From positions 64,001 through 128,000 of IMG/VR virus record IMGVR_UViG_3300042258_000071: DNA of 64,000 nt. One strand, written 5' to 3'. Positions 33,487 through 45,575 of the stretch are shown here, piece after piece. Every line of letters starts with the position of its first letter. Within the stretch, counting starts at the first letter, position 1. The position numbers were made by a program, and so were the translations under genes. The notes under the pieces are model-generated. The model was not told the DNA's origin, did not search any database, and was given only the letters and a program-made list of their open reading frames with translations. The DNA is from a virus (lineage: Duplodnaviria > Caudoviricetes).

Positions 33487-33511
33487 ATAGTCAATGATTG
33501 AGAGGATTAGA

Positions 33512-34727
33512 TATGATTGATATCAATATGGGTCAACTTAAGATGGTAATGACCCTTAAGAAATTACCAGAACCTTACAACGTCTTTGAGTCTGCAACTG
33601 TATATCTAAATACTCATCGGAAGCGAAGAGTTATTATTTTAAAAGGAAAGAATACTGCAAAAATATGGAAGGAAACAGGATTGGCATATCGAACTACTTA
33701 TGCACGTTTTCTTTATCAAATTGATTACTGGTCTAAGTATAAAAAATTAATACCCAACGGAATGGAAGTAGACCATATTGATGACAATTCTTTAAATGAT
33801 ACACTTTCCAATTATCAATTGTTAACTACTTTTGAGAATGCTCAAAAACGAGATTTCAACAATCGTAAATACACCGAAGTATCTAAAGAACTTCTCTCTA
33901 AAATTAAGCACCTTCTTGATAAGAAGATAAGTTATGTTAAGATATCACAAAAATGCGACATCTCTCCAGGTAAGTTAAAATACATTTTAAATACTCATTT
34001 TGGATATTCTTTTCCTGAGAAGTTTAAAGGTTTCGATGATGAGAAAATTAAGAAAATGCTCAAAGAAGGAAAGTCTCATAATGAGATTGGATTTGAATTA
34101 GGAATAAGTTATTCCTCGGTTCGAAGACATATCAAAGATAAACTCCCTCCAGAGTATCACGACATGGTAGGGGGTCGTAATCGTAAAGAGGTTCTAAAAG
34201 AGATTGAGTCGCTTCTTAAGTCTGGTGAAACTAGTAATTCCGTTATTGGGAAGAAAGTTGGATATACAGATAGTAATGTCTGTATTATTATTCAAAAAGA
34301 ATTCCCTGAGTATTATAAACAAATAAAAGAAAAGGAACAGGACGATCGATCTTCTATTATCACAGCTCTTAAGTCTAAATTAGATGAATATGGGATTATG
34401 GCTAACCTAACTCAAGTTAGTAAAGATTTAAATTTAACACAACAAGTTGTACATTCTTTAGTTGAGAAGTATATTCCTGAATATTCGTTTTATGAACTTC
34501 AGAAGCGTCGTATGAAATATGTTGTAGAATTGTTTCATAAAGATGCGACTCAGAGAATATCGTATTATGTTAAAAAGTCAAAATTAGGTATAGCAACATT
34601 CTTAAAAGCACTTAGTGAAGATTGTGGATATATCAATCCTACTGGAGTACGATTCATTGAAGTTAGAGATTGCTGGTTAAGATCTAAGTTTAAAGGGGCA
34701 CTATTATCTCAGAAGGTTTTAGGGTAA
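33512..34727 (+). CDS. Free-standing HNH homing endonuclease with tandem HTH modules
   Basis: YARFLY...MEVDHIDDNSLNDTLSNYQLLT--EN--K (HNH), then several HTH-like repeats (SYVKISQKCDIS, SHNEIGFELGISYSSVRRH, SNSVIGKKVG, NLTQVSKDLNLT). Start codon uncertain. Confidence 0.8.
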
Positions 34728-38924: not shown

Positions 38925-39028
38925 TACTGTGATGTCTCTTTAATAAAAGTTTATAGGACCTCCTGATCTTATGTGGTCGTATGAATTTGTTAAGTTATTT
39001 ACCTCAAAATAAAGGAAAAAGGTTACCC

Positions 39029-40657
39029 ATGACCGAGTTAGACCTTTCCTATGAAGATGGCAGTATCGCAACGCTTAAAGGTCTTGCGATCATGCGACAG
39101 TCTCCTTCTGCATATCTTCCAGATGCCGAGCATCGGGGTATCTCTCATCTTATTATTGAAGCTCTTGATAACTCTGGTGACGAAGTTCTTTTAAAAGGGG
39201 AACATGGTCAGATTGAAGTTATGTTGTGCCCTGACCCTAAACGTCAAACTGTACAAGTTATCATTGGGGATAATGGACGTGGTATCCCTCTTGGGGACAT
39301 GTGGCGTGCTCTTACACAGCCAAGTTCTTCTGGTAAATTTAACCCTAAAGGAGGCGCTTACCAGTATAGCTCTGGGCAATTCGGTGTCGGGGGTAAAGTT
39401 ACAGCAGGACTGTCCCAAGATTATCGTGCCATCAGTTATCGTGGTAAAGATGGATATGGATCTCTCCATGTTCACAAAGGGGACCATCCAGATGAGAATG
39501 TGTGGACTAAGAAGTATCTCCATCGTGACATCAAGACCGATCGAACAGGTGTTCTTACCATACTGGAGCCCGACTCCGACATTTTCACAGGGGTAGAGTC
39601 TTATTGCCCTGAAGGATGGTTTGCACTTATTGAGCGTATGAAAAAGTATGCATTCTTTCACCCTCTAACCAATATTAAATTTTATCAATCCTCAAAACCC
39701 CTCCCATCAAATGTATGGACTGTAGATCTAAGTGGTATTGATAAGATTCTAAAAGATACGATTGCAAACTCTGCGATCATTTTTGACTCTCGTACATTTG
39801 ATCGTGAGTCATGGCTGAACAATTATCTTGGGGTAAGTAAGCCCTTCGTGTGGAGCCATCATTTCATAAAACATGCCGAACCACCCAATGATAGTCTGAT
39901 GTGTGATATCCGTATACTGTATCATGATAAGGACACTGCAGCAGCTAAACTTGGGATGGTTAATTCGGTTCCTATTGACCACGGTTCTAGTAATCACATT
40001 TCAGAGCTCCTTTCCACGCTTAAAGAGAGACTTGAAACTCAGATCTCAGATAAAGCTATTCGGACGTTTTTTAAAGAGACCTACCGTCTCCCAATTTATC
40101 TTACTGTAAACGTTAAATATCAAGGTGCTAAATTTAGTGGGACAACAAAGGATGCATTCTTCTCTCAAAAATTTAGGGATGACTACAACGAGTATCTAAA
40201 CCAGTACTTCACAAAGACAGCAGAGGGTAAGGCCTCCATTGAGGAGTTGTATGCTCTTTTAGAACCTGATATTACTGAAAAATATCTTGCGTCTATAAAT
40301 GGGGCGTCTGTTGTTAAAGTTGAAAACCGTCTCTTTAAAGATCTTGCGAACCCTAATAAGTTTGCAAACTGCTTTGCTAAAGATCGTAGTGAAGCAACGC
40401 TTTTTCTTGTAGAGGGGGATTCTGCTGGTCGTGGGGTTGCTAAACTTCGTGATGGGGAGACGATGGGGATTTACTATATGAAAGGTAAATCTCTTAATGG
40501 TTTTGCCAAATGGGGTCGGGATCAAATTTCTCGTGAGATCCGTAAAAAGAAGTATGGGACGTATCACGATATCCTTAAAATTCTGAAACTCGATCCTGAT
40601 AACCCTAATCTTAATAGTCTCTATTATAACAAACTCGTAATAATGACAGACGCAGAT
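39029..40657 (+). CDS. gyrB: Type IIA topoisomerase/gyrase B subunit, exon 1
   Basis: EALDNSGDE, DNGRGIP, SSGKF, GQFGVG, LFLVEGDSAG, ending at LVIMTDAD at the intron 5' splice site. Confidence 0.9.
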
Positions 40658-41020
40658 TAAAGAATTATAGTCCACCTGATTAGAAATAATCATAGTGAAT
40701 CTTCCTTAATTGCTGGAAAGTCCTAAAGCCACATGCACTACAACGTAGTTGGAAACGACAAGCGTGATAGTTCAAAAAGCATATGGATATATGGACGATC
40801 AGCAGCGAAGCGCCTTATACATGTCGTGATGACAGCAGTGTGGTGAACGTTCAACGACTAACCGGTTGCGCGGAGTAGGGGTCAAGGGACCTCGAAATAG
40901 GAAGCATCTAAGAGTCCTTAAGGATTTAGGATGAAGATATAGTCTCGGCATATGAGGAAACCTCATAGCAGTGCTTAAGTGCACGGGTAGAGTGACAACC
41001 TAACTTTACTGAAGATATCG
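40658..41020 (+). mobile_element. Group I self-splicing intron (IA2-like), no ORF
   Basis: The exon ends in U and the intron ends in G. P1 GAU/UA..UAGUC; P3 CUUCCU(40701)/AGGAAG(40899); P4 UGCUG(40711)/CAGCA(40800); R GUUCAACGACUA; S AAGAUAUAGUC; P7 GACUA/UAGUC; P8 and P9 hairpins. Splicing restores MTDAD-SHGKHI in frame. Confidence 0.92.
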
Positions 41021-41914
41021 TCCCATGGGAAACATATCGCCTCCATCATCACAGGTAATATGTACGCCCTCTGTCCTGAGTTTGTAGAAGCAGGGAAACT
41101 CTTTGTGGTAACACCTCCTTATTACAAAATTCAATATAAGAAAGGTGATAAGGATAAAGCTCACTACATTAAAGATTATAATGATCTTGTGTTATGGTTT
41201 TGTGATCATGTTTATCGTCCAACCTTCAATATAAAGCTTGGGCATGTTCACCCGAACCCTAAAAATTTAAATAAGCGGGTCGAAACAATTCACGACTTAA
41301 ATGATCATCCAGAGGTGTTCGATGCTTTTATGCGAAACATTCTCACCTTTGGAGAGATCCTCATAAACCTAAGCCAAGAGCTCATGATAAACGCCCTTAT
41401 TCTTGAGAAGCTTACTTATATTTCGTACTATCTTGATGTTCACACCGTAGACCCCATTGCTATTAAACACATCCTATGTGCTGATGATGTCAGATATGAC
41501 GATGTTGGACACATCATCACCTTAACTTATGGCAGAGATGATTATGTCATTCCTCTTTTTAAAGTTAAGGAACGTCTAACAGATGAGCTTCTTCCTCTTT
41601 TAAACCGTATGAGATGGAAAGATCTGAGATTATATATTACTGCTAAGCGGTATAATGGCCTTAAAGATCAAGTCATGTCTCTTGGGGAATTTTATTCCCT
41701 TCTTAAAGGATTTGAGAAAGACTTTAAGATTGAGAAGCTCAAAGGTCTTGGCACCATGGAGCCCCAAGATACATACCAGACATGTATGGACCCAAGATAC
41801 CGGACCATGTATCAGATTACCTCTGTGAAGGATGTTAATTTGATATGGGATCTTCTGGGGAAAAACAGTGATAAACGAAAGAACCTGCTCATTGACCAGA
41901 CCATTAGAATTTGA
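41021..41914 (+). CDS. gyrB: Gyrase B subunit, exon 2
   Basis: SHGKHIASII...PEFVEAGKLFVVTPPYY...KLKGLGTM...TCMDPRYRTM...LLGKNSDKRK. Confidence 0.9.
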   Translation, partial: SHGKHIASIITGNMYALCPEFVEAGKLFVVTPPYYKIQYKKGDKDKAHYIKDYNDLVLWFCDHVYRPTFNIKLGHVHPNPKNLNKRVETIHDLNDHPEVFDAFMRNILTFGEILINLSQELMINALILEKLTYISYYLDVHTVDPIAIKHILCADDVRYDDVGHIITLTYGRDDYVIPLFKVKERLTDELLPLLNRMRWKDLRLYITAKRYNGLKDQVMSLGEFYSLLKGFEKDFKIEKLKGLGTMEPQDTYQTCMDPRYRTMYQITSVKDVNLIWDLLGKNSDKRKNLLIDQTIRI

Positions 41915-41939
41915 GCACATACCTGACTTTATAGAAGAG

Positions 41940-42674
41940 ATGGATCGATCCATCTCTTCTTTCTCACCTCTCAACAGTATGGAACATGTTTTTAAATCTA
42001 TCTGGTTAGAGCTCAGTAGTTTCTTAATGCATCCAACGCTTCTATCTGAAGAAATGTGCTATCATGATCTCAAGCATCCAGTGCAAATTCCAGGATACTC
42101 AGAGACCATAAATTACTTCTGCAAACACAATTATGGTACCACAGATCACTGTGCCACTTCTAAAAAAATAGAGGGGTTAAGACTTTACCCTACAACCCCC
42201 TCGGACATGCTTCAACATACTCTAGATTGGTTATATATCACACGTGAAATGTCTACTCTTAGATATCGACCTTCTACTTTAAATATTTTCAAATATCTTG
42301 GATACATCGCAATGCATCACAATAAGATCATGTATACACCCTTTAACCTTCCCTATTTTGAAGAAGGTAATTTTAAACGAAGTCTAAACGTACTCCCTCG
42401 TACAGCAGTTGGGTATCGTAAACGCATCATACACGTATCAACAAAATTAGAACGTGTTATCATCAACATCCCACGCCATGACGATGATGTCATAAAAACC
42501 TCGTACATATGTCTCGTCAGTGGATGGTGTTATATCTATCTGTGTTCTTTGTTAGAACGCGCTTATCGTTATGTAGGATATGTATCTGGTCCTAACAGAG
42601 TTCCGATTTCAAAATTTATCTCAACATTTGATCTCTTTACATCAACACTTGTTAAAGGGAACCACCTCCCATGA
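41940..42674 (+). CDS. Hypothetical protein between gyrB and gyrA
   Basis: Long ORF with uncertain start (41940 or 41979). The stop overlaps the next ATG. Confidence 0.5.
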   Translation: MDRSISSFSPLNSMEHVFKSIWLELSSFLMHPTLLSEEMCYHDLKHPVQIPGYSETINYFCKHNYGTTDHCATSKKIEGLRLYPTTPSDMLQHTLDWLYITREMSTLRYRPSTLNIFKYLGYIAMHHNKIMYTPFNLPYFEEGNFKRSLNVLPRTAVGYRKRIIHVSTKLERVIINIPRHDDDVIKTSYICLVSGWCYIYLCSLLERAYRYVGYVSGPNRVPISKFISTFDLFTSTLVKGNHLP

Positions 42675-43228
42675 GCACACTTCTGTTCACCAGAGAAGAT
42701 GTGAATAAATCCAGATCGAGCGAACTCATAAGACTCTTAAGAGTCATTGCGTATCGTCTGGGTATTGATAATTCAGCCTTTGCAAAACAGCATTATAACT
42801 GGTGTATGCGAGTTGGATATCAAAAATCAAAAACACAAGGCCTGTATAATAACCACCGGAGTATGGTGACATCGAATACAACGATGTCCATCAAGACCTT
42901 TTTCATATTCATTAAAGAGTGGATGAACTTCTCTATTGTTAGACTTTCAGTAACACTCCTCGATCCCGAGACTGGGAAGGAGATGGTTTTTCACAGTGAT
43001 GACATTGTCGATGATGATGATGCTGGAAGTCATAGTCCAACGAACCTTCCTGATATTGACATGGCGATTGATTTCGCAATTCGAAATGCTCCCGCATGTA
43101 AAAGTGCTGAGGAAAAGCAGTGGTTAATTGATCAGGTATTAAGATCACTCACAAAAGATACCTATAATGAGGCGATTAAACTATCTCCAGAAAAATGGGA
43201 AGTTGGAACGCCTCCTAAGGTTACATAA
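42671..43228 (+). CDS. Hypothetical protein
   Basis: 185 aa, ATGA-coupled to the upstream ORF. Confidence 0.55.
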   Translation: MSTLLFTREDVNKSRSSELIRLLRVIAYRLGIDNSAFAKQHYNWCMRVGYQKSKTQGLYNNHRSMVTSNTTMSIKTFFIFIKEWMNFSIVRLSVTLLDPETGKEMVFHSDDIVDDDDAGSHSPTNLPDIDMAIDFAIRNAPACKSAEEKQWLIDQVLRSLTKDTYNEAIKLSPEKWEVGTPPKVT

Positions 43229-43331
43229 GCTGCAATAACATTCAAATACGTGAGGACACTTTATAAGAGGAGTGTCCTCACCTCTTTTCATTAACACATT
43301 TTTGACCAAAATTAGACAATTGGGAAACCAC

Positions 43332-45575
43332 ATGAGTGATGTGCAGAAAACATATGAAGTTAAGAAGGCCATTGGAATCGATGCATCAGACCTCATTAGA
43401 GATCACCATATCGAATATGGAGAAGACATCTTTAAAAATCATTTCCCTCAAATAGGGGATGGTCTTAAAACTCTTTATCGAAGAATTCTTTGGGCACTTC
43501 AAGATACAGACGACTCAATTAAGGCTACTGCAGCCATTGCCTTAGTTATGAAATATCACCCTCATGGAGATACTTCTATTTATGATGGGATCGTTCGACT
43601 TGGAGCATATCTCCCTGATCCTAAAAACAAGTCGGCACCAAGAGAGGGTATCGTCTTTAATCCGCCACTTCTAAAAGCTATCGGTAATATGGCGGACCCA
43701 AATTTCTATGCAGCACCTCGATATACCAATGTTGCTATGGGGGAGTTTGGGAGAGATTTATTCTTTAAGGGGATTGAAAAGGCATCTATACCCATCACCC
43801 TTAATAGTGATGGATTTATCGAACCTCTATATCTCATCCCTGCTATACCTACAAATCTGTATTTTGGTAATACAACCGTCGGGTTCGGCCATGGATCTAA
43901 ACTTCCCCCTCGAAATTTTAATGAGGTGTGTGATCTTGCCATTGCATACTGTGATCATATTGGAAAGTTCGGGTTCGACATCCAGTACCCTTTTGAGATA
44001 GGGAAACATGCGTCCAAGCTTCTCCCAGATTTTTATATGGATAACGTCATTCTTAATGAAGACGCTCTTCTCAAAGCATATCGTCTCGGGGAATTCGATC
44101 ACGAGATCATATATACAGGATCAGTAATACTTACAAAAGATACGATTCATATTAAATCTCTCCCATATGGATCTTCAAAAAGTGCGTATGAGAAGTTGCA
44201 AGCCCTTCTCTTAGATCGAAAAATGAAGAACTCTTTTCTAGATCAAAACATCACAGATATCATGGACGAACCTGATCGGGCAACTGTGTATCTTAAGAAG
44301 AACAGTGTGTCAGTATTTGAAGTATGGCATGCTCTAAAACAACACATCGAATTTACAACAAGCTTCCATCCGAATTATAACTATTGTACTCCAAATGGTC
44401 ATCTCAATATAGATGTGGATGTTAACGTTCTTCTAGAGGTTTGGTATAAACGAAGAAGCTCTCTCATCTTAGGGACTAAAAGGAGACAACTCGAAAGACT
44501 TGCAAAAGCGATCCGTATTGTCGATGCACGATTGAACATTATCGAAAATACGGATAAAGCACTTAGGATCATTCGAAATAATGACATGGATAATGCTATT
44601 CAACTCCTTATGAAAAGTTTTAAACTATCATACTCTCAAGCAGACTACATCGTCACATCACGACTATCCATATTAACTAAGACGGGTCGTCAAGAACTCT
44701 TAGATGAACATGTTCGTCTTAAAGAGAAATTTAAAGAATTACAAGACAGTTTTCATCTCATCCCTAAAGAGATTATCTCAGATATTCTAGATCTTAAAAA
44801 GAAGTATCATCGAACGCGAATTACAAAAGTCCCTCATTATGTTGGATGTGTGAAACTAGGCTCTGGATATGCCCAAATAAGTGACTTTTCAGAGCTTGAA
44901 ACTCTTCTTTTAGACTTCCCCCGGGTACCTACCCAGGTCATCGATTATCAGCATAATAACGTCATGGTGATCGATCGAAAAGGGCGAGTCTTACAGAACC
45001 CAAAAGAGAAGTATGGTGAAGGAGATATCTATCTCACACCCCCATCTTTTCCTCATACAGTTCACCTGGCTCCAGATAAGACAGGTATGTGTGTAAAAGG
45101 TATTGTTCCTTATAGTGGGAGTGGAAAACTCTTCTATGCATCTCTTAGATCTAAAATTGTTTATAAAGATGGTTGGGTTAAATCTGAGAAAATCACGGAC
45201 GTTCTAAGTGTTCGTAAAACCATCTCTCGGGGGGCGAAGACAGATATCATTGCTGTGTATCCTAATTATCTTAAAGAACATTTTATCGTGATTGTAAGTG
45301 ATAAAGATTTAAATGTCCTAACCTTATATCGCGTTCCTGAAGGCTCTGAAGCAAAACTTGTCATGAACCAAGTTGGCATGAAGCACGTTATTGCACATGA
45401 GACCGGTAAAGACTGGTATTTAGACATCCCTGATAAGTATCTAACGCGAGGGAATGTAAGACTGTTTAACATCATTGATGCTCATGAATTACTTGGTACC
45501 AACAATCGTACCCGGATTGAAGTCACTGCTTCTAAATGGAGACGACATTCTCTTTTTAATGTCATCTCATACTAA
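43332..45575 (+). CDS. gyrA: Type IIA topoisomerase/gyrase A subunit
   Basis: DGLKTLYRRILW, KYHPHGDTSIYD, catalytic AAPRYT, G-T-VGFG, LSYSQADYI, beta-rich C-terminal domain. Confidence 0.88.
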   Translation: MSDVQKTYEVKKAIGIDASDLIRDHHIEYGEDIFKNHFPQIGDGLKTLYRRILWALQDTDDSIKATAAIALVMKYHPHGDTSIYDGIVRLGAYLPDPKNKSAPREGIVFNPPLLKAIGNMADPNFYAAPRYTNVAMGEFGRDLFFKGIEKASIPITLNSDGFIEPLYLIPAIPTNLYFGNTTVGFGHGSKLPPRNFNEVCDLAIAYCDHIGKFGFDIQYPFEIGKHASKLLPDFYMDNVILNEDALLKAYRLGEFDHEIIYTGSVILTKDTIHIKSLPYGSSKSAYEKLQALLLDRKMKNSFLDQNITDIMDEPDRATVYLKKNSVSVFEVWHALKQHIEFTTSFHPNYNYCTPNGHLNIDVDVNVLLEVWYKRRSSLILGTKRRQLERLAKAIRIVDARLNIIENTDKALRIIRNNDMDNAIQLLMKSFKLSYSQADYIVTSRLSILTKTGRQELLDEHVRLKEKFKELQDSFHLIPKEIISDILDLKKKYHRTRITKVPHYVGCVKLGSGYAQISDFSELETLLLDFPRVPTQVIDYQHNNVMVIDRKGRVLQNPKEKYGEGDIYLTPPSFPHTVHLAPDKTGMCVKGIVPYSGSGKLFYASLRSKIVYKDGWVKSEKITDVLSVRKTISRGAKTDIIAVYPNYLKEHFIVIVSDKDLNVLTLYRVPEGSEAKLVMNQVGMKHVIAHETGKDWYLDIPDKYLTRGNVRLFNIIDAHELLGTNNRTRIEVTASKWRRHSLFNVISY

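Follow-up and report, generated by a model that had tools for sequence, protein, structure and literature searches.

The segment at positions 40658-41020 (+) of the analysed DNA is very probably a phage-type group I intron (IA2-like) that has no ORF, is competent for splicing and interrupts a gyrB-like type IIA topoisomerase gene. This conclusion is based on covariance-model searches, a conserved fold and comparison with uninterrupted homologues. The stretch analysed here (the window, 64 kb) runs from base 64001 to base 128000 of a virus record of 236,443 bp, which has direct terminal repeats and was judged complete. The interrupted gene is a divergent gyrB-like (topoisomerase II large subunit) gene of an uncultured jumbo phage with a genome of 236 kb. 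Positions below are those of the window, and all features lie on the plus strand unless stated otherwise.

Exon 1 occupies positions 38981-40657, as judged from the ORF list, Pfam and PHROG matches, the start context and the N-termini of homologues. Its reading frame is open from 38981, and the ORF 38981-40660 ends with ...VIMTDAD followed by TAA. Translation probably begins at the ATG at 39029, which follows AAAGG; from there exon 1 encodes 543 aa. The exon 1 product contains the Pfam domains HATPase_c and Toprim and matches PHROG 543 'DNA topoisomerase II large subunit' (6.8e-46). The Toprim match covers positions 1-66 of 96 and is cut exactly at the last residue, 559. Exon 2 (41021-41914, 297 aa plus stop) matches Pfam DNA_gyraseB_C and PHROGs 543 and 7229. 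In the frame of the downstream ORF it opens with TCCCATGGG at 41021, and the encoded protein begins with SHGKHIASIITGN; its earliest ATG, at 41060, lies 13 conserved codons in. PHROG 543 spans both exons, and the Toprim and PHROG 543 matches stop and restart at the intron. A gene encoding the gyrA-like partner subunit (43272-45575, 767 aa; Pfam DNA_topoisoIV, 1.2e-51) is located downstream of gyrB. The two ORFs between gyrB and gyrA (41868-42674 and 42671-43228, 268 and 185 aa) and the two ORFs upstream of gyrB have no match in Pfam or PHROG, and thus no free-standing endonuclease was found beside gyrB.

An Rfam cmscan search of the whole window produced a match to RF00028 at 40648-40968 (+) with 74.5 bits and E 4.5e-17, covering the full model (1-253). 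It is the sole match above the gathering score (50) in the 64-kb window. With R1, a covariance model built here from relatives, the intron scores 280.6 bits. Exon 1 ends with ...GACGCAGAT at 40657, and TAA, in frame, is the opening triplet of the intron; the 3' end reads ...GATATCG at 41020, the final base being the omega G. The intron is 363 nt long, has phase 0 and directly follows the codon for the last Asp of the TOPRIM DxD motif. A previous reading of this DNA, made from the sequence alone, had proposed an ORF-less group I intron in gyrB at this very motif, with U before the intron (U40657), G as its last base (G41020) and an in-frame TAA as its first codon. All of these assignments are borne out by the Rfam score, the truncated Toprim match and the sequence itself, and the cmscan check against RF00028 suggested in that reading gave a match above threshold. 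The ORF list contains no plus-strand ORF of at least 40 aa inside the intron. An antisense ORF of 61 aa at 40799-40984 is taken to be a chance ORF.

The core helices could be placed from P1 to P9.1. P1 (40655-40672) is formed by exon GAU 40655-40657 and intron UA 40658-40659 with the guide UAGUC 40668-40672. The 5' splice site follows U40657, which forms a wobble pair with G40670. The GAU/GUC pairing of P1 is common to the introns of the viral gyrB loci L069 and L179 and of the phage MarsHill, with C-G versus G-C at position -4. P2 is at 40677-40692. P3 (40701-40706 with 40899-40904 in the RNAalifold pair table) encloses P4 (40711-40716 with 40799-40804), P5 (40721-40723 with 40793-40795), P6 (40805-40807 with 40848-40850), the 5' strand of P7 (40854-40860) and the hairpins P7.1 (40862-40873) and P7.2 (40878-40893), of which P7.2 covaries. 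P3 is followed by P8 (40905-40933), the J8/7 segment AAGAUA (40934-40939), the 3' strand of P7, UAGUCU (40940-40945), P9 (40951-40967) and P9.1 (40971-40984). The 52 nt from the end of the Rfam match (40968) to 41020 form a P9.1/P9.2 extension, which is kept in four paralogous introns.

The consensus fold derived by RNAalifold from six sequences (the five copies of this genome and L069) contains 86 pairs, and compensatory changes occur in 42 of them. In P3, CG, UA, GU and GC pairs are seen among the six relatives. The full core, including the extra helices between P7 and P3 described in the sequence-only reading, is thereby recovered. Subgroup IA2 is a plausible but provisional assignment, as P7.1 and P7.2 occur as extra helices between P7 and the 3' strand of P3.

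We infer that the gyrB intron is spliced in the following way. Pairing of exon GAU and the first two intron bases with the guide UAGUC would create P1, in which the splice site has a U.G wobble. An external guanosine held at P7 would attack behind U40657, and the released exon 1 would then attack behind the terminal G41020. The joined exons would encode a protein of 840 aa (from the ATG at 39029) reading ...VIMTDAD-SHGKHIASII... across the junction, and on unspliced RNA the TAA at the start of the intron would halt ribosomes.

The predicted junction can be compared with intron-less relatives. A homologue search in 5.8 billion proteins retrieved a small clade, in which the closest homologue, P0004 (843 aa, 68% identical), is colinear and uninterrupted. 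Across the predicted junction P0004 reads DADSHGKHIASIITGNMYALCP, exactly MTDAD-SHGKHI, and its wider context ...VIMTDADSHGKHIASIITGNMYALCP... matches the predicted ligation product. Removal of the intron produces a frame colinear with P0004, which has MTDADSHGKHIASIITGNMYALCP and no gap; the first 19 residues of exon 2 are identical in both. Both the MTDAD-SHGKHI junction and the length of about 840 aa had been predicted from the letters alone, and the comparison upholds them. The search for intron-less alleles proposed at the same time was also successful, as P0006, P0007 and P0008 (830-844 aa) are likewise uninterrupted. Since 13 conserved codons of exon 2 precede its first ATG, this part would be translatable only after splicing. 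No other stand-alone proteins resembling exon 2 were found, the search returning only that of the window itself. The exons of the window, P0005 and P0125 were also used to search IMG/VR for related loci, and nothing was found.

The site is polymorphic for the presence of an insertion. It is empty in P0004 and P0006-P0008. By contrast, P0005 (537 aa, 46% identical) has ...VIMTDAD as its very last residues, and another 21 clade representatives are also truncated at the site. These counts come from an exhaustive phmmer search of 1.84 billion representatives, which identified 147 clade members reaching the site. Twenty-two of them (15%) stop 0-20 residues past DxD, with tails unrelated to the conserved xHGxHI. 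The truncated proteins most likely represent further interrupted alleles, since contig ends would not cluster at one codon. As a control, 80 metagenome gyrB genes, mostly of the bacterial type, were compared at this site: 78 show no interruption, one is cut off by the end of its contig, and the remaining one contains an intein (locus L098, see below). The nearest relative of the gene has no intron, and thus the intron most likely entered gyrB secondarily.

Other explanations of the split gene are much less probable. One possibility is that the B subunit consists of two polypeptides like gp39/gp60 of T4, the intron being an inactive relic and exon 2 being translated from the ATG at 41060. Split yet functional topoisomerase II large subunits do exist in T4, the ATG at 41060 is preceded by AGG, and gene callers do predict the resulting 284-aa product. 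However, a start at this position loses SHGKHIASIITGN, with which the TOPRIM motif ends and which is conserved (100% identity with P0004), and a separate start codon where the second conserved segment begins, as in the gp39/gp60 type, is absent. Neither are there C- or N-terminal extension peptides such as the T4 MobA cassette has, and the ribozyme core is undamaged, with a score as good as those of its paralogues; we consider a two-polypeptide subunit very unlikely. Marginally less probable still is a decaying intron that splices poorly or not at all, gyrB being a pseudogene and the phage using the host gyrase. The intron has no ORF for a homing endonuclease, P1 consists of five base pairs only, and no P10 pairing with exon 2 was found. 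The short P1 and the lack of P10 count against splicing competence, and all three features agree with decay, endonuclease loss being a known step of the decay cycle of homing introns. On the other hand, every core helix is kept, with covariation; the exons are full-length, motif-complete, free of internal stops and 68% identical to P0004; and the gyrA-like partner is intact.

Ribosomal bypassing across the gap, as in T4 gene 60, hardly deserves credence. In its favour, 9 nt separate the site from the gap in T4, and the last sense codon is directly followed by a stop. However, this stop codon is all that the gap has in common with a bypass of the gene 60 type: the gap is 363 nt long versus 50 nt in T4, matched take-off and landing codons are lacking (the codon before the gap is GAT, and the triplet before exon 2 is TCG), and the complete ribozyme core accounts for the gap. 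An ORF-less intron that is removed by splicing is thus retained as the preferred explanation.

The genome contains five RF00028 matches, namely the gyrB copy and four matches in jumbo-phage multisubunit RNA polymerase (RNAP) genes. The latter belong to PHROGs 2986, 3148, 3295 and 2987, and the profile positions are contiguous across each intron. All four RNAP introns (L001, L003, L004 and L005) are ORF-less; they are located at G000:C1 57952-58270 (-), 51794-52105 (-), 10952-11313 (+) and 231183-231500 (+), respectively. The gyrB copy is 71-78% identical to them (70-77% in an alignment made with the covariance model), and none of the five copies has space for an endonuclease ORF. The exon preceding L001 ends with ...LGAD, and TAA is the next triplet. 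The idea that all five copies stand behind a GAT Asp codon was dropped, as according to the alignment it is true of only three of the five. The same intron family was observed behind an ORF ending with ...CFIVADSQTTDAD in L170, L172, L173 and about 45 other IMG/VR loci.

A search of the genome for the GIY-YIG and HNH families gave no Pfam match. The only HNH-type match in the 236-kb genome is HNH_3, found in a free-standing ORF of 409 aa at 33498-34727 (+), which also contains several helix-turn-helix motifs. This ORF lies about 6 kb upstream of the intron and 3.9 kb from the host gene, and its product is a candidate free-standing homing endonuclease. It is not similar to the endonuclease encoded in the gyrB intron of locus L204.

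In the covariance-model alignment, the core of the gyrB intron shares 76% identity with an intron in an RNAP gene of Serratia phage 2050HW, but only 60-70% with other introns at the gyrB site. The L069 and L179 introns are 85% identical to each other and group together with support 0.997 in an intron tree built on only about 260 columns. The simplest reading is that the gyrB copy arrived separately from the RNAP-type intron pool, because P0004 has no intron and the copy is nearer in sequence to RNAP introns than to gyrB introns. Concerted evolution within the genome might be an alternative to separate arrival.

Eighty viral gyrB loci from IMG/VR were screened by motif and tblastn, and an exact-pattern DNA scan was added. 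A number of other insertions are known or were found close to this site. Offsets give the distance in nt from the 3' end of the DxD codon. The site of the intron described here (363 nt, ORF-less, offset +0) is also occupied by a 353-nt ORF-less intron in L069 (188 bits with R1), by a 1156-nt intron with a LAGLIDADG ORF in L179, and by introns of the Staphylococcus jumbo phages MarsHill, Madawaska, LY01, Machias, PB50 and AH12. In MarsHill this is a mini-intron of 155 nt (R1 38.9 bits, E 1e-11), whereas Staphylococcus phages S6 and UFV_DC4 have an empty site. The metagenome contig Ga0079996_126994 (L098:4983-6545) has a LAGLIDADG intein at +0, with the boundaries ...ATDAD / SVTGDTPLL...GILLHN / TDGSHI. 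An intron of another type, with 24.2 bits against RF00028 (below threshold), is located at +2 in L038. Two introns occur at +6, one ORF-less (L182) and the other encoding a protein with HNH_3 and NUMOD4 domains (L204), with P1 formed by CCGGAU and GUCCGG. Finally, at +9 in L082 an intron of 1040 nt, which contains a GIY-YIG ORF (Pfam 3.3e-11), separates DADIDG from AHIQ, and the annotated 50-nt gap of T4 gene 60 (DADHDG / gap / LGSIY) falls at the same position as the L082 intron.

The introns at +0, +2, +6 and +9 in unrelated viral gyrB genes and the intein at +0 support the conclusion that the insertion point lies within a 9-nt DxD-x-DG stretch repeatedly hit by homing elements in viral gyrB genes, a recurrent hotspot such as the sequence-only reading had supposed. 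As a general rule, introns and inteins insert at conserved catalytic sites (PMC2814812). A broader joint reading, which we regard as equally open to being right or wrong, is that the 9-nt TOPRIM DxD-x-DG stretch is a pan-viral hotspot for multiple homing elements. The elements that entered it independently would comprise at least two types of group I intron, with three endonuclease families among them, a LAGLIDADG intein and the MobA/bypass cassette of T4. The 50-nt gap of T4 would then be one of several interchangeable 'immunity inserts', and the intron of this phage would have come separately from the RNAP-type pool.

Some uncultured viral gyrB genes contain one to three insertions each. These were observed in L069 (7078-7371, 7525-7877 and 8091-9136), L068 (7324-8683 and 9161-10262), L038 (5766-6112 and 6354-6566) and L072 (7321-7734). 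Several of these insertions have a core of a second group I type, which is sub-threshold in Rfam.

A group I intron in gyrB is not new as a kind, being annotated and published at the identical site in Staphylococcus jumbo phages. The literature reports introns in DNA gyrase B of MarsHill-like Staphylococcus jumbo phages and in gyrase A of AR9 (10.1101/2020.12.14.422802); the GenBank record of MarsHill (MW248466) annotates the gyrB exon junction at the identical site. The list of known phage intron host genes in the sequence-only reading was therefore incomplete, as it did not include the published gyrB introns, and the novelty was overstated. The introns of MarsHill, Madawaska, Machias and LY01 resemble the present one in their insertion point (behind the GAT codon for the DxD Asp, in phase 0), in the logic of P1 (GAU with GUC), in the homologous core segments AAUUGCUGG, GUUCAACGACUA and AAGAUAUAGUC, in the jumbo-phage host and in the existence of sister phages with intron-less alleles. 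However, the MarsHill-type intron is a mini version of 155 nt without peripheral helices, as opposed to the full 363 nt here. Of the unprinted positions in the R1 alignment, the MarsHill intron lacks 64 of 67 between the two strands of P5, all 35 between P7 and the 3' strand of P3 (the P7.1/P7.2 region) and 24 of 25 in P8. Moreover, identity between the host genes is only about 25%, and the Staphylococcus phages are AR9-like, whereas the present phage is phiKZ-like. Mini-introns of the Staphylococcus jumbo phages, at about 140-155 nt unusually short for group I, were located at L087:3840-3994 (MarsHill) and at L088:1561-1709 and about 2340-2478 (LY01), and there are 8-31 similar places per genome; Rfam does not report these mini-introns.

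The closest introns in sequence are those in RNAP genes of phiKZ-like phages (Serratia phage 2050HW; PhiPA3 gp210, PMC11620839). However, these reside in genes of the beta and beta' subunits and often contain an endonuclease ORF, whereas the present intron resides in gyrB and has none. The introns of T4 td, nrdB and nrdD (IA2), Twort and SPO1 share with it P7.1 and P7.2, location at catalytic-motif sites of DNA-metabolism genes and early in-frame stops; they differ in the host genes, and many of them have endonuclease ORFs.

In T4, exon 1 of gene 60 ends with MTDADHDG, directly followed by the annotated 50-nt gap. The annotation agrees with the earlier placement of this gap three codons (9 nt) downstream of the present site; the gap falls exactly at the site of the GIY-YIG intron in L082. 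In both the T4 gene 60/MobA system and the present phage, DNA encoding the TOPRIM DxDxDG motif of a phage topoisomerase II large subunit contains an insert that is, or here would be, removed from the product, leaving the protein unchanged. However, in T4 the 50 nt are hopped over at translation and the gene is split by an HNH endonuclease gene, whereas in this phage the insertion would be resolved by RNA splicing and the gene is in one piece. The parts of a recent bypass-cassette survey available to us state that in T4-like phages the 50-nt insert shields DNA from nicking by MobA, and treat introns in general terms, not at this site (10.1101/2022.08.31.505936).

Standard annotation deals poorly with such genes. 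Gene callers break the gyrB gene of this phage into fragments of 559 and 284 aa, two fragments having been foreseen in the sequence-only reading, and the public record of phage LY01 contains the same error in the form of a gyrB fragment and a 'hypothetical protein'. Rfam searches at the gathering score and at E<=1 returned nothing for L038, L069, L082 and MarsHill; a narrow search of the L038 introns gave sub-threshold matches only (about 24 bits). The region L069:7560-7781 was not reported by Rfam cmscan at E<=1, yet it has 188 bits with R1, and thus the miss appears to be a false negative of the filter. For this reason, negative Rfam results are not evidence of absence here. As Rfam misses the L069 and MarsHill introns and scores that of L038 below threshold, gene splits of this kind are under-recognised.

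The intron described here adds a phiKZ-like lineage to the phages known to have introns in gyrB. Together with the related loci, it makes the catalytic DxD-x-DG motif of the type IIA topoisomerase B subunit one of the busiest homing sites in phage genes. The main added value lies in this busy homing site being shared with the T4 hop: the hop of gene 60 gains a comparative context that is absent from the available parts of the recent survey of bypass cassettes.
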